DNA of 19,992 nucleotides from assembly GCA_048938385.1 (NCBI GenBank), contig JBHLMG010000028.1:6682-26673 (forward strand), read 5' to 3'. Source of the stretch: Promethearchaeota archaeon. GTDB taxonomy: Archaea; Asgardarchaeota; Hermodarchaeia; Hermodarchaeales; Hermodarchaeaceae. The position numbers were made by a program, and so were the translations under genes. The notes below the pieces were generated by a model that saw only the letters and a list, made by a program, of their open reading frames with translations, did not search any database and was not told where the DNA came from. The stretch's first letter is position 1, and each line of letters begins with the position of its first letter. This document shows, piece by piece, positions 166-14,601 of the stretch.

Positions 166-852
166 CTAATGTATCCAACCGGATTCTTCGTAGATTTTCT
201 TTCCTGGTCCAGCAACAAGGTACTCTAGAAATTTCTTGGCGAGGGATTTCTTTTGGGAATTGCTTATGATAGCTATGCCTGTGCTTCGAAAGACCTGATA
301 TTCAGGAGGGAGTTCTATGACTTCAGAGGTTTTGGGCCAGGTAGTTCCAAAGGTGTTCCAGCCAAAGATGGCATCAACGGTTCTTTTATGAATGAGAGAC
401 ATAATATCACCGCAGCCATCGGCGCGATTAGTAATGTTGGGTAAAATAAGATCTGTGATTTTGGCTTTACTACAGATATCATCCCAAAGGCCCAACAGGC
501 AGCCACTTATTGAAATCCCAACTTTCATGTTTTTTCGTGTTAAATCGGCGAGTGAGTGAACGCCTTGGGGATTGTTGGGAGGAACGAGGATGACAGCTCG
601 TCTGTACCCGACACTTCTTCGACTTGTGTTGTCAATTATGCCCTTCCTTGCGGCTTCATCGAGGAGATATTCTGCTCCACACTGGAGGAGATCGCCGGTC
701 TTTGTCTCTGTGATTTTCATAAAGAGATCTTCAGCTTTACCCGTTATGAAACGGAATGTTACCCCGGTGTTTTCACTGAAGAGTTCAGATGTTTTTCTAA
801 GTGGGGGTGCTGTGGCGCCTGACGAGTAGACGAGTAGATTGTTCTCTGGCAT
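166..852 (-). CDS. ModA/WtpA-like molybdate/tungstate-type substrate-binding protein, no signal peptide
   Basis: 228 aa; LVYSSGATAPPL, GKAEDL, GDLLQCGAE, VPPNNPQGVHSLADL, VDAIFGW and AKKFLEYL…GKKIYEESGW match the ModA-like SBP pattern. An in-frame upstream stop at 886-888 with no intervening ATG/GTG/TTG excludes an N-terminal leader. Confidence 0.8.
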   Translation of the reverse strand: MPENNLLVYSSGATAPPLRKTSELFSENTGVTFRFITGKAEDLFMKITETKTGDLLQCGAEYLLDEAARKGIIDNTSRRSVGYRRAVILVPPNNPQGVHSLADLTRKNMKVGISISGCLLGLWDDICSKAKITDLILPNITNRADGCGDIMSLIHKRTVDAIFGWNTFGTTWPKTSEVIELPPEYQVFRSTGIAIISNSQKKSLAKKFLEYLVAGPGKKIYEESGWIH

Positions 853-982
853 ACGAAATCGAATAGGTTTACTCCATGGAGGTTTTTATCCTATGCTTTT
901 CGCTAGCGATCTGGCGTTTTCAGTTCTTCAATTGAAGTGATAGCGGAGTAGTTGAAAGGAGGCTTTGATGATGACGAGTTCT

Positions 983-2677
983 TTATGGTGTAACAACCTC
1001 GATTTTGAGTTTGGGCTTTCTGAAAACTTCAGCTTGTTCTTCGAGGATATTTCGTGCGATGTTTAAGGCTGCTTCATCGTCATAGACGCCTTGAGCGTTT
1101 TTCAGCGCATCTTGGAGCATCTGACGCTGCACTTTGAGCTTTAGATCCCCAATCGTTAATGCCCCAATCCCATAGGTGTCAGGAAGTAACTCACGAAGAT
1201 CATCCATTGGCGTTAGTGATTCAATACCACTTGGAGATACCGCATTCACATCTAGCAAGATTTTTGTCCCTAAAACAGATTGCAGCTGTTCGAGGGATAC
1301 TAATTGAACGCCAGGAGCCCCAACGGCGAAAATCAAAGTAGCGTCATTGATAAGCTCATGAATTGCCTTTGGTGAAGTTGATTGAGCCCCTTCCACCTTG
1401 TTACTTTCAATGGATGCGCGTTTTGCTACTTCTTGGGCGCGTTCAATTTTCCGCGAAGTTAAAACCGTAATGGCTCCACTCTTGGAGAGTAAGTGAGCTA
1501 GACTTTCGCCAACGGGTCCAGTTCCTGCAAGAATTAAAGCCGTGTTGCTTTTGAGCGTCCCTTGACGAAGTTGATGCAGAGCTGCTTCGGCTTTAGCAAG
1601 CATGGCTGCAGAAGTGGAAAAGGCTCCGTGTGGGTCAACAATGACGGATGTTTCGAAAGGTTTCACCATTGCCTTTTGAATTCTGTCCGCCATCTGGCGA
1701 GCAACAGAAACCTGACGGCCTCCAACAAAGAAGCAGAGATGCTTTACTCCTTTGGTCCCTCTTGAAAAGATGGCGTCTTGGACAAGGTCTTGAATTTGAT
1801 CAAGTGACACCCCAGTGTATGGGACTACGACATCAAATCCTGCGTCATACGCTACACAGATATCAAACGGGCTAGCGTGGTCATCCGCTTCTAGGAAAAA
1901 AAGGATGTTACTTAGTTTTGTTTTGGGGCGTTTGATTACGGGTATATAAGAAACTGAGGAGACTCCTGTGAGTTGGGTCATTCCTTTTAGTTCTTCCTTA
2001 GGTAATTCGGAAAGAATCTGTTTAAAGATTATAGGAACTACTTCTACTTCTAAGGACTGTAAGAGTTCCATTAAGCCTTGGTAATGTTGAGGGCTGCTTA
2101 GGTGAAAGGCTGTTATTCGTTTCTTTTTGAGAAGATCTGCTTTGTTTAAAATCCCCATGGCAATCCAGCTTTCCCGGATTCCAAATTGTACTTGTCTAAT
2201 TTCTTCTTCAAGTTCATCGTGCAAATATTGTCCATAGGCTACAAGTCGATCTATGTTATCTTGTACTTTTGGAGTTATTTTTTCACCCGACAGGACCTTT
2301 AAGCCTTCTAAGATTTCATTTCGCTTTTCCAATTTCAGCTTTATACTACGTGAGAGAAAACTGTGAGCAACCTCATCCATATCAACCGCGTATAGCGGGA
2401 TCTTTAATTTCGCAAATACGCTGGCTAATGGGTTGTCTTCATGGAATTCCTTCGTACTACGCAAACCTAACTCATCAGTCACAAATTCGGGCTGTTCTGA
2501 TTCTGCAATCTCTTTTACCATTTCACAATACGCCATGGAAGGTCGTTTAATTGCGGTCATCTTCGATGCAGATGCAGAAGAGAGAGCAGGGATTCGCCAA
2601 GGTTCATCATAGGCCTTTCTAATTAAAAAAACTCGCAGCTTTTTTCCTTTCAAAGGAGCAAGTTCTAGTGTTTTCAA
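983..2677 (-). CDS. mtdB: NAD(P)-dependent methylene-H4MPT dehydrogenase (MtdB/MtdA family) with a ~250-aa N-terminal extra domain
   Basis: C-terminal half has HASPFDICVAYDAGFD, QDAIFSRG, FFVGG, DPHGAFSTSAA, Rossmann LAGTGPVG, DVNAVSPSGI and GIGALTIGDLK. Start placed at TTG 2677, which has AGGTGA 4 nt upstream (564 aa); the longest ORF begins at 2791. Confidence 0.85.
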   Translation of the reverse strand: MKTLELAPLKGKKLRVFLIRKAYDEPWRIPALSSASASKMTAIKRPSMAYCEMVKEIAESEQPEFVTDELGLRSTKEFHEDNPLASVFAKLKIPLYAVDMDEVAHSFLSRSIKLKLEKRNEILEGLKVLSGEKITPKVQDNIDRLVAYGQYLHDELEEEIRQVQFGIRESWIAMGILNKADLLKKKRITAFHLSSPQHYQGLMELLQSLEVEVVPIIFKQILSELPKEELKGMTQLTGVSSVSYIPVIKRPKTKLSNILFFLEADDHASPFDICVAYDAGFDVVVPYTGVSLDQIQDLVQDAIFSRGTKGVKHLCFFVGGRQVSVARQMADRIQKAMVKPFETSVIVDPHGAFSTSAAMLAKAEAALHQLRQGTLKSNTALILAGTGPVGESLAHLLSKSGAITVLTSRKIERAQEVAKRASIESNKVEGAQSTSPKAIHELINDATLIFAVGAPGVQLVSLEQLQSVLGTKILLDVNAVSPSGIESLTPMDDLRELLPDTYGIGALTIGDLKLKVQRQMLQDALKNAQGVYDDEAALNIARNILEEQAEVFRKPKLKIEVVTP

Positions 2678-2854
2678 ATAATCACCTGCCCTTTGGGGGC
2701 AGTAAAGACTCCTCGCCATTGAAGAAAAAGTCGATGAAAATTTATTTTGAAAGAAATCATGACAAAAATTGTCGTCAACTTTTTTGCTCATTACAAACAG
2801 GCTAAGCTAGCGCAATTTTTGTTGATATGGCTTCGATATAATAGATATTCCAGC

Positions 2855-4189
2855 CTAACCTTTCGATTCACGAAATCTAATATCTGTATGAGTAGCACAA
2901 GAAACACAGGGATCAAAACATCGAATGGCCATCATTGCTCGTTCGAGGATTTTTTCATTCGACCAACCAAGATCTAAACAAGCCGTCATGACATTTTTTA
3001 CAACTAAAGCTATCGCACGGGCATTAAGCTCGGTTGGTACTCGAATATCAAGACTCTCAATTCTTTCTTTATCGTCTATTTTCACTTGGTATAGGAGTAT
3101 TCCTCGTGGAGCTTCAACCGCGCTCGCTCCTACAGTGGGTCGTGGTTCCGAAGCGATTGAGACTTCTTCATGTACCGACCATTCTGTTTCTAAAAGCCTG
3201 ATCGCATTGGTTATCGCAAATTCAATTTCATCGATTCGGAGAAGGCCTGAACGAAAAAGGTTGGGTGTTCCTATTTGTGATGCTTTGCTCTTTTTGGGTT
3301 TAGTTTTGAGATCTGCTAATCGGGCATAGGGTCCTGCGAGGAGGTTTTTTGACTCATCGCTTGATTTGACATAAACTATCTTGGTTGGAGCTTCAAACAA
3401 GTCCTGTTCGACTAGATGCTCAGAGAAATCGTGACAGGGAATTATTTGGGGGGCTCCATCCTCTGAAATGAATTTGACTTGATTAACACCAGAGAATCGA
3501 TTTGCTTCTGTTTCAAAACAGCTGATATAAAGAGGAAGAGGGAGAGCATAGTTTTGGATTTCACCTTCGATTTCATTCAGTAACCAGCTGTAGTACTCTT
3601 TGGTCCATTTTACCCCGGAGAGCGTTGCATGGAGTTGTCGAATAAGGTCTTCTTGTTGGGTGATAGTGATATTTTGTACGATTCCGCCTGGAATCAGGTT
3701 AAAAGCCAAATTTGTATTACCCGCTGTAGCTGTAATTAGCGCCTCTGCGCAATTGTATAATTTCGTAGCAATTGGGAGAACACGGGGTTGCGTGCGATCT
3801 ATACCAATGATATCTTGACGAGAGATTTGGTTAGTTAGGTGCATTAGATCAACTAAGGTGGAGAAAAAAACGCTGTAGGTATGCGATCGGATGATTTCCC
3901 CTAACAGGGCCAGTTCTCGGATTAACTCTGCAATTGGAGGAATTGATACATCAGATGTTGATTCTATTGCCTTTATTGCTCCGATTCTATGTGAAACTGG
4001 GCAAATCCCACAGATTCGAGGTACAATTTTTGGTAAGTCCTTTACTTTTTGTCCAGTTAAGACCCCCGTGAAGTCCCGTGCAGTGGACATGTTATAAATT
4101 ACATTTACAATACGGTCCTTCTTCCGTGTAACGATAAGCTCACTTTCGCCTTCAATGCGGGTCATGGGCAAAGATAATCGAATTTTCAA
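2855..4189 (-). CDS. mvhA: Group-3 (MvhA-like) [NiFe]-hydrogenase large subunit, divergent
   Basis: L1 RICGICPVSH, L2 FDPCVSCATH plus a 10-aa C-terminal extension, TRIEG and EAPRG. The TTG start overlaps the upstream TGA (TTGA, 4186-4189). Confidence 0.88.
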   Translation of the reverse strand: MKIRLSLPMTRIEGESELIVTRKKDRIVNVIYNMSTARDFTGVLTGQKVKDLPKIVPRICGICPVSHRIGAIKAIESTSDVSIPPIAELIRELALLGEIIRSHTYSVFFSTLVDLMHLTNQISRQDIIGIDRTQPRVLPIATKLYNCAEALITATAGNTNLAFNLIPGGIVQNITITQQEDLIRQLHATLSGVKWTKEYYSWLLNEIEGEIQNYALPLPLYISCFETEANRFSGVNQVKFISEDGAPQIIPCHDFSEHLVEQDLFEAPTKIVYVKSSDESKNLLAGPYARLADLKTKPKKSKASQIGTPNLFRSGLLRIDEIEFAITNAIRLLETEWSVHEEVSIASEPRPTVGASAVEAPRGILLYQVKIDDKERIESLDIRVPTELNARAIALVVKNVMTACLDLGWSNEKILERAMMAIRCFDPCVSCATHTDIRFRESKG

Positions 4190-4920
4190 TGTTTGACCTT
4201 CAGCTCCGGTTTTTGATATCTAAAGGCAAGTGCGGCATATTCCCGAATCGTATCGCTGACTTTTAATACGGAGAAGAGATTGGCGATGGCAGAGGGGAGA
4301 TTTCGGTCAATCGCGCCCATGCAACCATCACAAGGCGTGCCTCCATTAATACAATGGGCCTCACATCCAGCACGGGTTACCGGACCTAGACAAAGGACGC
4401 CTTCGCGTAAGAAACAGCTTGTTGGTGGATGCGTCGCATGTAATGATGTTATCTCGATGTCATATGTTTGATCTTGTGCAAAGGGGCATTCTCCACACAC
4501 ATTTTTCTCAGGTATTTCGATTTCAGAACCGTCAATTGCGCTCATCAGGAGATTTCCAATAAGCCTCCGTGGCGGGGGACAGCCAGGTAATGACGAATGC
4601 GGATCAACGAACTTATTGACAGGCTCAACCTGGATGTTGGGCGAGTGACTCATTATTCCCCCCAGAACGGCGCAACTTCCAAGAGCGATAATTTTGGTTC
4701 CTTCTGACCATAGTTTCCGAAGAAGTTCAGCATCCTCATTCCGAGTAACTCCACCTTCCACGAATACCACATCTAAATCTTTATCATCTTGGATATCGAA
4801 AATTAATCGAAAAATCTGAATATCTACAGATTTAAGGAGTTCAGGGAACAGGGCACAACCGAGTATAGCAAACATGCAGCCGCTACAAGAGTTCAGCTGA
4901 AGGAAACCCATCTTGGGCAT
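4186..4920 (-). CDS. mvhG: [NiFe]-hydrogenase small subunit (MvhG/HydD-like)
   Basis: SCSGC, VEGGV, ALGSCAVLGG, LPGCPP, VCGECP, CFLREGVLCLGPVTRAGC…C…PCDGCMG. ATG overlaps the upstream TAA by 1 nt at 4920. Confidence 0.9.
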   Translation of the reverse strand: MPKMGFLQLNSCSGCMFAILGCALFPELLKSVDIQIFRLIFDIQDDKDLDVVFVEGGVTRNEDAELLRKLWSEGTKIIALGSCAVLGGIMSHSPNIQVEPVNKFVDPHSSLPGCPPPRRLIGNLLMSAIDGSEIEIPEKNVCGECPFAQDQTYDIEITSLHATHPPTSCFLREGVLCLGPVTRAGCEAHCINGGTPCDGCMGAIDRNLPSAIANLFSVLKVSDTIREYAALAFRYQKPELKVKH

Positions 4921-7448
4921 TAACTTAACAGCTCCTTTAATTCGGTGGCAAATTGATTGACCTGGGAAGCAAAAATGTGGCCCTCAACTGCTGATACATT
5001 CAGTACGCGAACGCGTTTTTGTAATTCTTCTCCATAGAACTGTGAAAGAACGCTAATTCGTTGACTCGCCTTCTGGATACCAAAAAGATAACGGCATGCA
5101 GTTTCATGACAGCCAACAATCATGACGCCGTCAAATCCATAGTTTAGAGCATCTATCACAAAATTTGCATCGATAGAACCCGTACAAGGCAATCTAATTA
5201 TCATTGCACTAGTCTCATAGTCCAATCGACGAATACCAGCATTATCTGCTGCGGGGTACCCGCAAGAGTCGCAGGTAAGAATAAGTATTCGTGGTATGAT
5301 TGCACCCATAGACAAGGCAATCATCGCGGCTTGGATTTCCTCCTGAATTGGAGGTGAAGACAGGGCTCCTGTGGGACAGATTGCGACACAATCTCCACAG
5401 CCTTCACATTTTAGAGTATCAATACGGAGCGTATCTGCTGTGATAGAGATGGCTTTGAAAGGACAAACCTCTAAACAAAGATTACACAGCCCACATTTTT
5501 CTTGATTTATTTGAATAGGTATATCTCCTGCTGGAAGGTTATCCTTTTCTAATAATAGGAGAACTTCTAAAGCGACATTTCGCGAGTCTGTTACTAGTTC
5601 GGAATAAGATTTAGGACCCGTTAGTGAGCCACAGGCCCAAATACCTGAGGATAGGCTTTGGGGATCAAGAAAACCGCGTCTATCCAAGGAAAAATTTGTC
5701 ATTGTACGAAGGGCTAATTGTTGATCTCCCGGGGCCATACCCATGTTTAGAACAATGAGATCCGCTGGAAAGCGATTCGCTCCCGTTTCAATAAACCGCT
5801 TTCGTCCCCGATGTATAACTTTTATCTCTTCACAAAAGTGAATATGGGGATCTTCCGGGATGAAGATGTTTCGATCTGGCGGAATTCGAGATTTCTCGTA
5901 AATAATATTGATAGAAGTATTTGGAGCTTTATGCTTAACAACATCTATGAATTTTAGCGCGACATTACAGCAATAGTGTGAACACGCATTGATAGAATTT
6001 TGGCATTGGAGGATAACTATAGATTTAGCGAGTTTGCCATTTATTTGTCGGAGTATGCTGCCTCCTGTTGGTCCATCAGGAGCAAGCATTCGTTCAAATT
6101 CAGATGAGGTGATAATGTCCATTGATGGGTTATATTGAATTGGATCTCGGTGTTGAATGGTCTTGGGATCACAAACTTCTGCCCCCGTCGCTAGAACTAT
6201 AGCTCCAACCGAGAACTTCTTAGTTTCAGGTCGTTGATCAAGGTCAATGGCATGAGACGGACAAGCCTTTTCACATTTCCTGCAATTTCGACAATAATCT
6301 ATGTTCTCTTCATCAATAACTGGTTTGTTGGGATATGCAGCAGGACATGGTATATGGATAAGTTTACGCTGCGAAAAGTTAAACTCAAATTCATCTGGAC
6401 GAGACTCCGGACAGATAGTAGTACAGGACCCACACATGATACACTTTGTTAAATCGACATATCTAGGTTGTTGGGTAGCGGTAATTTCGTAATTACCTAT
6501 CGTACCTGAAATATCAGTGAGTTCAGTGTTAGTAAGAATTCGTATCTTGCCGGAAAGGATGACAGATGATACATCCTCAGCGATCATGCAAGGGCCACAA
6601 TCTATGGCGCCGTAGATTCGCTCCCATCGACGGGCGATTCCACCTAGGCAAGACTGTCTTTCTAGCAGAACAATCGAGTGATTAGATTGTGCTAGAACCT
6701 TTGCAGCTTCCAATCCAGCTAGTCCACCACCAATGATGGCGACACTTTTCCGAATTGGTAGGGTTCGTTTTGGGATTGACACCCGATGTCGGAGCATTGC
6801 CACGCTTGCCCTGATTAGTAGTAGAGCTTTTTCCGTAGCTTGTTCGGGCTTATTTTTATGAACCCAGGCACACTGTTCGCGGATATTTGTAAATTCGACT
6901 GGTAATTCTAATTGCATTCGAATTGTAGTAAACATTTGGCTATGAAGACGAGGCGAGCAGGCAGCAATTACCAGATTGTTCAAAAAGTGCCGCTCACACC
7001 ATTCTTTGAGCTTCGCAACATTTTCTAATAAACATAAATGCTGAAACACCATCGTGCGTTCAACAAAAGGGAGGGCGTTGACTTTCTCAACAAGTTCACC
7101 GACATTAATGGTCTGACGGATTTCTTCGCCACAAGTGCAGATAATTACTCCAATACGGAAGATTGCTCCACGTGAATCAGCTTCGCTTATATCAATTGAT
7201 TCTCCCGCCATTAGTTGGTCCTTCGCAATCATCAAGCGGATTGCACTTCCACCCGCAGCTGAAAGTTGATAAAGTCCATTTCGTTTCTCAATAAATCCTT
7301 CAAGTTTTTTAAGATGATAATTAAACAGACCAGTTTTTTTAAGCCCTAATCGTTTCATCAAATCATTATAGGTGATTAGCCGTTCGGCATCTAATATCCG
7401 AAGAATCTTTTCGCGGAGAGGGTGAGCCAATGCCGCATAGATATTCAT
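4920..7448 (-). CDS. hdrA: Fusion: N-terminal winged-HTH (ArsR-like) + heterodisulfide reductase subunit A-like FAD/Fe-S protein + C-terminal MvhD-like [2Fe-2S] domain
   Basis: aa 1-~75 ALAHPLREKILRIL…TYNDLMKRLG…GLFNYHLKKL (wHTH). HdrA motifs IGVIICTCG, AACSPRLH, NIREQCAWVH, IIGGGLAG, DCGPC, four ferredoxin-type CxxCxxCxxxCP motifs, EFERML and CSHYCC. MvhD motifs TCDSCGYPAAD, RLPCTGSID and DGVMIVGCHETACRY. Confidence 0.92.
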   Translation of the reverse strand: MNIYAALAHPLREKILRILDAERLITYNDLMKRLGLKKTGLFNYHLKKLEGFIEKRNGLYQLSAAGGSAIRLMIAKDQLMAGESIDISEADSRGAIFRIGVIICTCGEEIRQTINVGELVEKVNALPFVERTMVFQHLCLLENVAKLKEWCERHFLNNLVIAACSPRLHSQMFTTIRMQLELPVEFTNIREQCAWVHKNKPEQATEKALLLIRASVAMLRHRVSIPKRTLPIRKSVAIIGGGLAGLEAAKVLAQSNHSIVLLERQSCLGGIARRWERIYGAIDCGPCMIAEDVSSVILSGKIRILTNTELTDISGTIGNYEITATQQPRYVDLTKCIMCGSCTTICPESRPDEFEFNFSQRKLIHIPCPAAYPNKPVIDEENIDYCRNCRKCEKACPSHAIDLDQRPETKKFSVGAIVLATGAEVCDPKTIQHRDPIQYNPSMDIITSSEFERMLAPDGPTGGSILRQINGKLAKSIVILQCQNSINACSHYCCNVALKFIDVVKHKAPNTSINIIYEKSRIPPDRNIFIPEDPHIHFCEEIKVIHRGRKRFIETGANRFPADLIVLNMGMAPGDQQLALRTMTNFSLDRRGFLDPQSLSSGIWACGSLTGPKSYSELVTDSRNVALEVLLLLEKDNLPAGDIPIQINQEKCGLCNLCLEVCPFKAISITADTLRIDTLKCEGCGDCVAICPTGALSSPPIQEEIQAAMIALSMGAIIPRILILTCDSCGYPAADNAGIRRLDYETSAMIIRLPCTGSIDANFVIDALNYGFDGVMIVGCHETACRYLFGIQKASQRISVLSQFYGEELQKRVRVLNVSAVEGHIFASQVNQFATELKELLS

Positions 7449-7579
7449 ACTGTGATCCTTCTTGATTTTCTGCGGAAAAACATCTATGATAACTTCAATT
7501 GTCTTGGAAAGGAGCTAAGACAAAAATGCTTGCCCTGTTTCAAAAAGGAATGAAAAAGGGCTTTGACAAGTTCCTATAA

Positions 7580-7822
7580 TTAGTGAGTCAGCAACTCTTT
7601 CGTACGCTCAGAAGTAAGGGGCGGAGCGCGATAGCGAGTCTGGCGACAGCTACGACAGACATAACGAGCAATAACATTAAGAACCCCGCACCATTGACAT
7701 TTCCAAAAATCCACTGTTACCAGTGTTATGTCGCTTTTGCGTCTTATATAACGACAATGCTGGCATAGGCGTAGATGTATAAAATTAGATACTCCACATA
7801 TAGGGCAAGTCCAATATTTCAA
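7580..7822 (-). CDS. Small protein with two tandem RanBP2/NZF-type zinc fingers
   Basis: WTCPICGVSNFIHLRLCQHC and WKCQWCGVLNVIARYVCRSC both fit W-x-C-x2-C-x3-N-x6-C-x2-C. TTG start with GGGGTGA 6 nt upstream. Confidence 0.8.
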   Translation of the reverse strand: MKYWTCPICGVSNFIHLRLCQHCRYIRRKSDITLVTVDFWKCQWCGVLNVIARYVCRSCRQTRYRAPPLTSERTKELLTH

Positions 7823-8040
7823 CCCATATCACCCCACAATGATCCTTCTTACGGCCTATTCATAGAGCCTCCAAACTTTTTTCTCGGGATGTGTTGCGTT
7901 ATTTCTCTTTAGAGATTCGTTGTTTTGATGGAACCTAATTTCACATCCTCAGCATACATTAGAAGGGAATTATGAAACAAAAAGACTCTGAAAAAAATCA
8001 TTTCAAATGTTTGACAAACAAATTTATCTTTAGATGACCG

Positions 8041-8259: not shown

Positions 8260-9564
8260 TTAAACATCAGTTATCGGGTCATCATCAGTGATGTTTTTTG
8301 CCTCGTCATCTTTGGGCGTGGCGATTAAGTGGGGTAGTTGTTCATCTAAGAAGGCGCTAACATTGTCTAAACAGGTTTGTTCCAAGTTGAGGCAATGAAT
8401 GTCCACTAGGGCGTTTCTTAGAATACGAAACGGGGTTTCTCCTATCTCTCCTGCTAGAAGGGCGTTGACATTGATATCTAAAAGCGCTTTTGCTGAATTT
8501 GTGCCATATTGTTCTTTTTGTGACGGCCCTGGGTTTTTCATGGTTCTCCAATGAAAAAGTTCACTATTCTTAACATCCATAATCAGGAAGTAAGGCGATG
8601 CCTCAAAGGATGAGTTAGGTAGAGATTCGGGAGTTGAACCGGCCTTATCTACAGGGATTGCTATCCGAAATGATTCAAGCCTAGTAGGTTCAAGATGAAC
8701 AAGGAATGTCAGCATTTCAGGGTAGGTAGCAGCGACTCTCATTTCAATTTCATCCGAAACCCGATGAGCTTGTGATAAGGTTAAATCCGCAGAAACCTCT
8801 AAATGGGCTTCACCAAAGCAAATGGGTCCTGCCTGACGGATTTTTATGTCATGAACGCCTTGCACACCTCTAACTTGGGAAGCTAATTTCGTAATTTCTT
8901 TCACTTGATCAGGCTTTGTCACCGCATCCATCAAGATCAATAAGGAACTGTACGAAATTTCCAAGCTACTCTTTAAAATAACCAGACCTATGATAAAGCC
9001 AACTACGGCCTCAGCCCACCAAATACCTACTCCTTCAAAAAGTAAGCCGACAAGAACAACTAATGAAGCGTACAAATCCATTCTGTAATCCTGACCAATA
9101 CTGTAAACCGCTTCACTCCCCGTTTCTCGTCCAATTTTTTTCAAATACCAAGACTGTACAATAATTATGGGAATCGAAACCAAAGCCACTATTAGGGCTG
9201 CATCATAAAACGCAATTTCTATGGGTAATAGAATGTGCATTATTGCCTGCCAGAGAACTAGTAGTCCTGTTCCAAAGATGAAGATTGCAACAACTAATGC
9301 CGCCATTGTCTCAGCCTTGAAGTACCCATAGGGATACTTCTGACTAGGTGGGCGTTGAGCTAGCCACAACCCGAGGTACACAGTTGATCCAGCGATTAAA
9401 TCGGTAAAGGAATCGATAGCTTGAGCAAAAAGCCCTACACTACCTGAAAAGTATCCTACAATACCCTTTGAGAGGGCAAGGAAAATCACAACAACCATTG
9501 CCCATTTGATGACTCGACGACCCCGATCCAATTGGTGATCAATAACCCCTATCGGTTTACTCAT
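8260..9564 (-). CDS. Cation diffusion facilitator (FieF-like) with C-terminal NifB/NifX-type domain
   Basis: SGSVGLFAQAIDSFTD, YPYGYFKAE, DYRMD, dimerisation domain VHDIKIRQAG…AHRVSDEIE…VHLEP, then RIAIPV…PYFLI…KNP…G…GEIG (NifX-like). Confidence 0.9.
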   Translation of the reverse strand: MSKPIGVIDHQLDRGRRVIKWAMVVVIFLALSKGIVGYFSGSVGLFAQAIDSFTDLIAGSTVYLGLWLAQRPPSQKYPYGYFKAETMAALVVAIFIFGTGLLVLWQAIMHILLPIEIAFYDAALIVALVSIPIIIVQSWYLKKIGRETGSEAVYSIGQDYRMDLYASLVVLVGLLFEGVGIWWAEAVVGFIIGLVILKSSLEISYSSLLILMDAVTKPDQVKEITKLASQVRGVQGVHDIKIRQAGPICFGEAHLEVSADLTLSQAHRVSDEIEMRVAATYPEMLTFLVHLEPTRLESFRIAIPVDKAGSTPESLPNSSFEASPYFLIMDVKNSELFHWRTMKNPGPSQKEQYGTNSAKALLDINVNALLAGEIGETPFRILRNALVDIHCLNLEQTCLDNVSAFLDEQLPHLIATPKDDEAKNITDDDPITDV

Positions 9565-13740: not shown

Positions 13741-14601
13741 TCAACGGACCATTGCTAATCGGCGATTTGGGTAGTCTATGATTAGCGTATAATTCTTCAA
13801 GAAGGGGTATCCGAGAATGCCATAATCGATTTTATCACCTTTTGGAGAAACTACATTGAGATCGATGACGCCAACGGCAACATTTTCCTGTGTGGCTGTG
13901 CCAACAGCGAGTTTCTCCAAGGTTGCAGCGAATCCGGTGGCTACCCCAATGGGACCAGTACACACGCCTTGAGAGCATCCTTGGGCTTGTACGGCTTGTT
14001 GCTCTTCACTGCTTTGTGATGGGTTTTCAGTGATTCCTAGCTCAGTGGCAAGTGTAGGAGTGATTACCGTTCCTGAAGATCCAGTGTCAAGAATCAGTTC
14101 AAAGGGTCCCTGGGTATTAATGTAAACGGGAACTCTCATTAAATGTGTGTCTTGGACATACTGGAAAGGAATCCATTCAACACCATCCTTGGCCATAATT
14201 TTAGAACCCGGTTGTTTATCGAGTTGGACTGTCGAGGCACGATAATCGATCTGGACGATGTAGTCTTTCAAAATATCCTGGCCAAGGACTCCTGGAGTTA
14301 AGCACCCAGCGCCCATGGCAGGACCAAGATCGATTACGACGACCTCCTTGTTGAGAAAAGTCTCAGTTCCTAACTGGAGGCTTTCCACCATAGCAGATTT
14401 AACAGGAATTGGGGTTCCTCCCACACCCGAAGCTTTGGCTTTGGCACCCTGATATGTTTCTATGCCTAGTTGATCTGCGAGCACCTTTGAGATCACCGTC
14501 ATTCCCGCTCCGGTATCTAGAGTAAAGTCGAAGGGTCCCTTCTCGTTTATATACACAGGGAGGTGAATGTGGCCAGATTCTTTGGCGATTTTCATTTTCA
14601 T
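13741..14601 (-). CDS. Tandem two-domain retropepsin-like aspartyl protease
   Basis: PVYINEKGPFDFTLDTGA…GVLG and PVYINTQGPFELILDTGS…GILG; no signal peptide evident. Confidence 0.9.
   Translation of the reverse strand: MKMKIAKESGHIHLPVYINEKGPFDFTLDTGAGMTVISKVLADQLGIETYQGAKAKASGVGGTPIPVKSAMVESLQLGTETFLNKEVVVIDLGPAMGAGCLTPGVLGQDILKDYIVQIDYRASTVQLDKQPGSKIMAKDGVEWIPFQYVQDTHLMRVPVYINTQGPFELILDTGSSGTVITPTLATELGITENPSQSSEEQQAVQAQGCSQGVCTGPIGVATGFAATLEKLAVGTATQENVAVGVIDLNVVSPKGDKIDYGILGYPFLKNYTLIIDYPNRRLAMVR

Follow-up and report, generated by a model that had tools for sequence, protein, structure and literature searches.

Hydrogenase and heterodisulfide reductase (Hdr) genes of Asgard archaea are usually annotated as the methanogen-type MvhADG–HdrABC complex, though there is no heterodisulfide to reduce (PMC8163825, PMC11291895). 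What is such a hydrogenase for when it lies beside a dehydrogenase gene of one-carbon (C1) metabolism? This question is raised by a 19,992-nt stretch of DNA, hereafter the window (positions 6682–26673 of contig C38), from a 2.48-Mb Asgard metagenome-assembled genome that is 89.8% complete; near homologues carry the names Hermodarchaeota, Thorarchaeota and Promethearchaeota. A first-pass annotation had described five co-oriented genes at 166–7448 and had proposed that they tie H2/ferredoxin electron flow, or its sensing, to C1 chemistry on tetrahydromethanopterin (H4MPT), with a methylene-H4MPT dehydrogenase (Mtd) fusion standing in for HdrBC. Our comparison with relatives supports a functional tie between the hydrogenase/HdrA genes and the Mtd fusion. 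As to its nature we favor, with a little more confidence than doubt, a reading in which the Mvh–HdrA complex would act as a PutA-like trigger enzyme, controlling both the operon that encodes it and mtd. The features on which the argument turns are as follows.

4920–7448, minus strand: fusion of a winged helix-turn-helix (wHTH) domain, HdrA and MvhD; 842 amino acids (aa); Pfam DUF7347, HTH_20 and FlpD; NCBIfam HdrA2/HdrA
4186–4920, minus strand: MvhG-like [NiFe] hydrogenase small subunit; 244 aa; Pfam Oxidored_q6, NCBIfam VhuG
2855–4189, minus strand: MvhA-like [NiFe] hydrogenase large subunit; 444 aa; TTG start; L1 and L2 motifs
983–2677, minus strand: fusion of an N-terminal domain (N-domain) and Mtd; 564 aa; Pfam Mpt_N; the longest open reading frame (ORF) spans 983–2791
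2761–2776, no strand assigned: operator-like palindrome, about 100 nt before the start codon of the Mtd fusion
7488–7534, no strand assigned: two tandem copies of the palindrome, 40–86 nt upstream of the hdrA ATG
8013–8028, no strand assigned: third palindrome site, exact to the relaxed pattern given below and about 190 nt upstream of a zinc-ribbon ORF

All five minus-strand ORFs were located where the annotation had placed them. The hdrA and mvhG genes overlap in TAATG at 4918–4922 and mvhG and mvhA in TTGA at 4186–4189, and the spacers measure 177 nt between mvhA and mtd (2678–2854) and 130 nt between mtd and the modA-like gene (853–982), again as reported. The reported lack of hdrB and hdrC was borne out in so far as the contig is devoid of CCG-domain (HdrB/D-type) genes; HdrC was not searched for.

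When the adjacency to mtd was tested over the genomes of relatives it proved to be conserved, the hydrogenase/HdrA genes and the Mtd fusion being neighbors in at least six Asgard families and in two gene orders. A co-directional order, hdrA-mvhG-mvhA-mtd, was found in the genus of the window (loci L089–L094) and in family f31 (L095–L098 and L009), with 53–58% protein identity in HdrA and the fusion. In families f14, f20 and f21, hdrA, mvhG and mvhA are instead transcribed divergently from a stand-alone N-domain gene that is followed by mtd. Our survey sample comprised 400 Asgard genomes; the wHTH-HdrA protein was present in 121, in exactly one copy in each, and the Mtd fusion in 144. By a hand tally of coordinates, wHTH-hdrA and mtd on the same contig are about 1–15 kb apart, co-directional or divergent, with one exception at 431 kb. 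Within the window's genus the two proteins are either both there or both missing; genomes G097 and G099 hold mtd on short contigs, and at locus L092 mvhA is still beside mtd. In one member of f31 (g78) the hydrogenase and the HdrA body are missing, and a 93-aa wHTH-only gene lies directly upstream of mtd. The module loci of relatives were probed with the five window proteins and, for L109, with Pfam, but not with HdrB/C families; no CCG-domain gene came to notice there. Four of the five genes are a conserved Asgard module, which would be transcribed as two units, hdrA(wHTH)-mvhG-mvhA and the fusion of N-domain and Mtd.

The domain that sets this HdrA apart occupies residues ~1–75 (7224–7448) of the 842-aa fusion and is followed by the HdrA core (98–708) and the MvhD domain (719–840). 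It matches Pfam DUF7347 (3e-13), HTH_20 and HTH_24, an ArsR/SmtB-like winged-helix signature, and a phmmer search returned 539 relatives. Among 23 orthologues H9, P10, R12, H45 and Y60 of the wHTH are invariant, and the recognition-helix region, TGLxNYHLKKL, is highly conserved. The enzyme portion is complete: the HdrA part, its inserted and C-terminal ferredoxin domains included, aligns with residues 5–634 of 5ODC_A and the MvhD domain with MvhD of the same structure (5ODC_D), while the alignment of orthologues retains the flavin adenine dinucleotide (FAD) GGG motif and the Fe–S cysteines of HdrA. The best PDB matches of the small subunit are the Mvh/Vhu small subunits 9SFI_I and 5ODC_E, and that of the large subunit is MvhA (5ODC_F). 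In the latter the L1 (RICGICPVSH) and L2 (DPCVSCATH) motifs are intact, with a 10-residue tail after the L2 His, and the hydrogenase retains its Ni–Fe cysteine ligands. We rejected the idea that the hydrogenase is a degenerate pseudo-enzyme because the CxxC pairs are retained in all lineages checked.

The two units share a palindrome in their control regions. In an alignment of the mvhA–mtd spacer from seven genus members, TGAC...TTGTCAT is invariant and is followed downstream by a TATA-like block rich in A/T, and the palindrome GACAA-N6-TTGTC is found about 100 nt before mtd in seven of seven genus loci as well as in f31. In the window the TATA-like block is at ~2736–2750, with the palindrome (2761–2776) just 5′ of it, giving mtd a promoter-like region of its own. 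Upstream of hdrA the genus carries two tandem near-matches; in the window, 7488–7503 is exact to a relaxed 16-bp pattern, GA(C/T)AA-N6-TT(G/A)TC (GAYAA-N6-TTRTC), and 7519–7534 differs by one mismatch. An exact GACAA-N6-TTGTC precedes hdrA in another f31 member (g79), and the divergent intergenic regions of f14 (two perfect copies), f20 and f21 also hold the palindrome. Across five families, then, the same palindrome precedes both hdrA and the Mtd unit. Loki-type genomes in which wHTH-hdrA is 11–15 kb from mtd have matches about 750–800 nt upstream of mtd, and in L113, with wHTH-hdrA 11 kb away, a perfect TGACAA-N6-TTGTCA lies upstream of the N-domain/mtd pair.

The relaxed pattern occurred 29 times in 9.6 kb of control regions and 5 times in the 294-kb remainder of the same 17 loci, an enrichment of about 180-fold that has to be read with the A/T-richness of intergenic DNA in mind. 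In Bathyarchaeia loci that carry the Mtd fusion and have no wHTH-HdrA, there were no matches in 499 kb. The 2.48-Mb genome contains six matches, against ~13 expected from its composition, and the only intergenic ones are two on the window contig (at 7488 and 8013).

Trigger enzymes, such as PutA of E. coli and Salmonella and the archaeal RbkR, provide the closest precedent for this combination; the polypeptide of PutA, a flavoenzyme, also carries a DNA-binding domain, and the promoter of its gene contains an operator. Both features are present here, an enzyme and a DNA-binding-type domain on one polypeptide and a palindrome in the promoter of its own gene, and by analogy the proposed switch is the redox state of a flavin. 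The folds and chemistry of PutA are unrelated, and the sensor here would be a multi-subunit [NiFe] hydrogenase/HdrA complex. HdrA is a dimer in solved complexes. In the mechanism that we propose, the HdrA dimer would set two winged helices on the palindrome, which would make the Mvh–HdrA complex a trigger enzyme. Electrons from H2 oxidized at MvhA would pass through MvhG and MvhD to the Fe–S clusters and FAD of HdrA, whose redox state would alter DNA binding and thereby tune the expression of two targets, the operon of the complex itself and the Mtd paralogue. The latter would link the methenyl/methylene-H4MPT step of the Wood–Ljungdahl pathway to NAD(P)(H), beside the coenzyme F420-dependent Mtd. 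The complex might also turn over a second substrate, namely ferredoxin and a further acceptor. The annotation had left open whether electron flow or its sensing is tied to H4MPT chemistry. The tie itself fits the conserved adjacency and the shared palindrome, and sensing is the better fit of the two options because the wHTH on HdrA is the only identified DNA-binding domain that recurs in the module; the part that the annotation gave to Mtd as an electron partner found no support, as described below.

Several points weigh against regulation by the complex itself. The window taken alone has seven motif matches against 2.9 expected, a modest excess reached by 6 of 200 shuffles. The motif was widened after some sites had been seen, the related genomes in the counts are not independent, and the wHTH-only loci L099 and L100 lack a clear palindrome. 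Another, unlinked regulator could bind the palindrome. A four-subunit metalloenzyme would be an expensive sensor, and the intact catalytic motifs would equally fit a working enzyme that merely autoregulates. Finally, the view of the target as a methylene-H4MPT dehydrogenase of the NAD(P) type, with an N-domain added to the MtdA/MtdB fold, takes both function and cofactor from the fold alone.

A more specific form of the same proposal is a one-component "regulatory hydrogenase", in which the DNA-bound complex would read H2 or the redox state of ferredoxin directly, by way of its flavin and Fe–S chain, and switch the NAD(P)-linked methylene-H4MPT dehydrogenase, thereby setting the direction of the Wood–Ljungdahl methyl branch. 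We put this forward tentatively, as an idea with less than an even chance of being right. The HoxBC–HoxJ–HoxA system of Cupriavidus (group 2b) conveys an H2 signal through a histidine kinase and a response regulator. The idea of a hydrogenase reporting H2 to the transcription machinery is common to both, whereas the hydrogenase group differs, the DNA-binding-type domain is here inside the complex, and the module contains no kinase. A feature of group 2b, a large subunit that ends at the L2 His, is absent from the window MvhA, which is nearest to Mvh, but four Loki-type orthologues do end there.

These four MvhA proteins (L109, L110, L116 and L125, all of f20) stop exactly at the His of DPCxSCA(T/S)H, and that of L117 (f21) has a six-residue tail after L2. 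In all five, L1 reads RICGLC(H/Y)ASQ, with Gln replacing the final His. The L2 His of MvhA is replaced by Asn in one genus member (L093). The wHTH-HdrA orthologues of f20 have also lost several cysteines that the window protein and methanogen HdrA both keep, among them those of the CS..YCC stretch and, in the first inserted ferredoxin motif, the fourth Cys. Because these conserved cysteines are missing, the alignment suggests that at least one Fe–S cluster was lost from wHTH-HdrA in the Loki-type lineage.

In an enzymatic reading of the annotation, the Mtd fusion would take the physical place of HdrBC and serve a bifurcating Mvh–HdrA complex as its high-potential arm, such that H2 would reduce ferredoxin together with methenyl-H4MPT or NAD(P)+. 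It would account for the contig's lack of a CCG-domain gene (none was noted in the relatives' loci either, within the scope of the search given above) and for the tight, conserved adjacency to the fusion; the extra conserved N-domain could then serve in docking or hold a cofactor. We consider it unlikely from the properties of the fusion. Its start was placed at TTG (2677) behind a GGTGAT ribosome-binding site, giving 564 aa, the same length as all homologues, of which residues 1–252 (1922–2677) are the N-domain and 253–564 (983–1921 including the stop codon) the MtdA/MtdB-type dehydrogenase. The dehydrogenase consists of an Mpt_N domain (Pfam, 3e-30) followed by a Rossmann domain. In an AlphaFold (AF2) model built from 70 sequences, with a predicted local distance difference test score (pLDDT) of 88.7, Foldseek superimposed the C-terminal half on MtdA of Methylorubrum (PDB 1LU9) with a template modeling (TM) score of 0.94 by target, a root-mean-square deviation of 1.8 and 31% identity. 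Residues G385, T386, G387, V389 and G390 of the GTGPVG dinucleotide motif are invariant. The alignment of homologues contains no invariant or near-invariant cysteine, and we recognized no flavin or Fe–S motif in the fusion that could accept single electrons from the HdrA clusters.

Its distribution points the same way. The ~565-aa family, named NAD(P)-dependent methylene-H4MPT dehydrogenase in databases, spans Asgard, Bathyarchaeia and Hadarchaeales, and in the latter two the fusion is common beside F420-dependent Mtd, Ftr and a PhoU-type protein, with neither Mvh nor HdrA nearby. At the Bathyarchaeia loci no Mvh adjoins the fusion, and an HdrA-like match was seen at L025 alone, some 8 kb away. 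Moreover, the orientation of the two units flips between families, and an own promoter-like region with an operator-like site is the usual layout of regulator and target. With an F420-dependent Mtd in the genome as well, the substitution of Mtd for HdrBC finds no support.

The likeness of the dehydrogenase half to MtdA and MtdB of methylotrophic bacteria (PDB 1LU9, 6TLK) extends to the Mpt_N and Rossmann folds and the GTGPVG motif, and the best tblastn segments are 34–43% identical to ~290-aa homologues, with ~40% for the proteobacterial ones. The fusion differs in being about twice as long through its 255-aa N-domain, in being archaeal, in coexisting with F420-dependent Mtd and, in Asgard, in lying under the putative wHTH-HdrA operator. 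The N-domain is predicted (pLDDT 88) to combine an alpha/beta core and a long hairpin of helices (residues 100–173). It has no Pfam match, and Foldseek gave no PDB match below E 0.01. A wide VIA-align search was dominated by the helical hairpin, with middling alpha/beta matches such as CbiL (Z 8.6), and the ESM Atlas returned the domain's own family, stand-alone Asgard paralogues and a weak likeness to TraB/GumN (TM 0.50). We did not adopt the TraB/GumN identity because the fold searches gave no convincing solved relative. The domain also exists as a stand-alone paralogue of ~210–240 aa, and in some Loki-type genomes (L109, 7487–12649; L110) the pair of stand-alone N-domain gene and Mtd-fusion gene is tandemly duplicated.

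A 342-aa protein with MazE/AbrB-like and PhoU domains flanks the fusion in L130 (Bathyarchaeia) and L131 (Hadarchaeales); in L130, F420-dependent Mtd and Ftr are flanking genes as well. This MazE/AbrB–PhoU protein may be a different dedicated regulator for the fusion at these two loci.

Another possibility is that the window encodes an ordinary bifurcating Mvh–HdrA that borrows HdrBC-type or other acceptor subunits, the wHTH serving only for autoregulation and mtd being merely a co-regulated Wood–Ljungdahl gene. The search for hdrB-type and H4MPT-pathway genes recommended in the annotation found both elsewhere in the genome. There are 14 CCG-domain matches, all off the window contig, and seven CCG-domain (HdrB/D-like) proteins, some beside paralogous hdrA genes; canonical F420-dependent Mtd is encoded on C36, and Mch and Ftr on C51. 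Three further Mvh/HdrA clusters lie on C46, C51 and C2, and a lone HdrA–MvhD-type paralogue on C48. The window module is neither the sole Mtd nor the sole Mvh/Hdr of the organism. Candidate partners are thus at hand, and the MvhA and HdrA catalytic motifs are all intact, as this explanation would have it. Yet these other clusters come with HdrA and MvhD of their own and therefore need no extra HdrA. The window proteins are only 24–33% identical to these paralogues (tblastn) and therefore represent an extra, distinct system. Nor was a CCG-domain gene noted near wHTH-HdrA at the loci examined, within the scope of the search given above. We regard borrowing as improbable, on a par with the replacement of HdrBC by Mtd.

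Two peculiarities were seen in the paralogous clusters. That on C51 has two tandem hdrA genes ~8 kb from the Mch gene and 14 kb from that of Ftr. The C2 hdrA is interrupted by in-frame stops (three TGA, one TAG and one TAA), which could be selenocysteine codons or mark mRNA introns of the kind seen elsewhere in this genome.

If the complex does not bind the palindrome, some other transcription factor, such as a global regulator, might, with the wHTH on HdrA retained for protein contacts or as a vestige. Domains of this kind can mediate protein contacts, and DUF7347-type domains are present in many archaeal multidomain proteins. A global regulator would, however, be hard to reconcile with a palindrome that is essentially confined to the module and has its sole intergenic occurrence in the genome there. 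Across families, the palindrome and wHTH-HdrA are found together, and where wHTH-HdrA is missing so is the palindrome; the recognition-helix region is also highly conserved. We judge this explanation to be quite improbable. A fortuitous neighborhood with no functional link applies to the ModA-like gene, but for mtd it is barely credible given conservation among families at only 30–40% protein identity, in two orders and with a shared palindrome.

We therefore return to regulation by the Mvh–HdrA complex and its relation to known enzymes. With the MvhAGD–HdrABC complex of hydrogenotrophic methanogens (PDB 5ODC, 8RVU, 9SW2) the module shares homologues of MvhA, MvhG, MvhD and HdrA with their cofactor motifs, and the predicted electron path, from the Ni–Fe site through the MvhG clusters and MvhD to the FAD of HdrA, is likened to that complex. 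It differs in having no CCG-domain gene on the contig, in the fusion of MvhD to HdrA, in the wHTH at the HdrA N-terminus, in its setting apart from methanogenesis and in its pairing with an Mtd-type gene under the same putative operator. The MetFV–HdrABC–MvhD complex of Moorella thermoacetica joins HdrBC and a flavin/Fe–S MetFV reductase at the methylene-to-methyl step. It too wires HdrA/MvhD proteins to a C1-carrier redox step of the Wood–Ljungdahl pathway, whereas the linked gene here encodes a hydride-transfer dehydrogenase lacking conserved cysteines, and a physical complex is unsupported.

The annotation had not recognized the arrangement as described, and our search of the literature on MtdB in Asgard, HdrA with helix-turn-helix domains and DUF7347 likewise found no description of it. 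The parts (Mvh, HdrA–MvhD fusions, MtdA/B and ArsR-type regulators) are known; it is for their combination that we found no published account. What appears to be new is the Mtd fusion, with its N-domain paralogue, as a conserved and putatively co-regulated partner of wHTH-HdrA. About 30% of the sampled Asgard genomes have this distinct Mvh–HdrA paralogue, beside which no CCG-domain gene was noted within the scope given above; it has its own wHTH, a 16-bp putative operator and Mtd as putative target. Models of Asgard physiology, and of the syntrophy invoked for eukaryogenesis, hinge on H2 metabolism and on which way C1 flux runs. If the proposal is true, a regulatory hydrogenase would set the methyl branch to its reductive (H2 uptake) or oxidative (syntrophic H2 release) direction in the closest prokaryotic relatives of eukaryotes, and redox sensing by a hydrogenase–flavoprotein complex that doubles as transcription factor would be of a new type. 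The purpose of the hydrogenase, H2/redox sensing in Asgard and the role of the widespread archaeal 565-aa Mtd fusion are thereby made testable. A sequencing-run search for the window DNA listed sediment and mangrove DNA runs and no RNA run.

Three further features of the window adjoin the module.

7580–7822, minus strand: zinc-ribbon ORF upstream of hdrA; 80 aa; weak Pfam Zn_ribbon_RanBP match
2686–2702, minus strand: hairpin CTGCCC-loop-GGGCAG, abutting the Mtd-fusion ribosome-binding site
166–852, minus strand: leaderless SBP_bac_11 (ModA-like) gene; 228 aa; outside the conserved module

The zinc-ribbon ORF (a double zinc ribbon) is conserved as coding sequence upstream of hdrA in L089–L091. 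Because the operator-like site at 8013–8028 lies upstream of it, this ORF is possibly the first gene of the regulated unit in the window's genus. The stem of the hairpin at 2686–2702 is partly conserved among genus relatives; since it also abuts the ribosome-binding site, translational control of the Mtd fusion through this hairpin is possible.

The annotation had counted the ModA-like gene as part of the cluster. The adjacency test refutes this linkage, as no homologue was found in any relative's locus, nor elsewhere in this genome. Its product has a full-length match to SBP_bac_11 (E 1e-35; type II substrate-binding protein (SBP) fold family) and does not reach the NCBIfam ModA/WtpA equivalog level (18.9 bits where 288 are required, and 16 where 355 are). 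It carries no signal peptide or lipobox, the sequence beginning directly with the mature fold, and no modBC-type transporter genes flank the gene. It belongs to a widespread family of ~230-aa leaderless SBPs. With no linkage in any relative, we rejected it as a member of the system, and it is most simply taken as a chance, unrelated neighbor.

The contig genes downstream (HpaB, PEMT, HXXEE and others) are unrelated to the module. Two other proteins of the window were noted for their domains: a cation-efflux (CDF) transporter at 8260–9564 has a C-terminal Nitro_FeMo-Co (dinitrogenase cofactor-binding-like) domain, and a 286-aa protein at 13741–14601 contains a tandem pair of retropepsin-like aspartyl protease domains.

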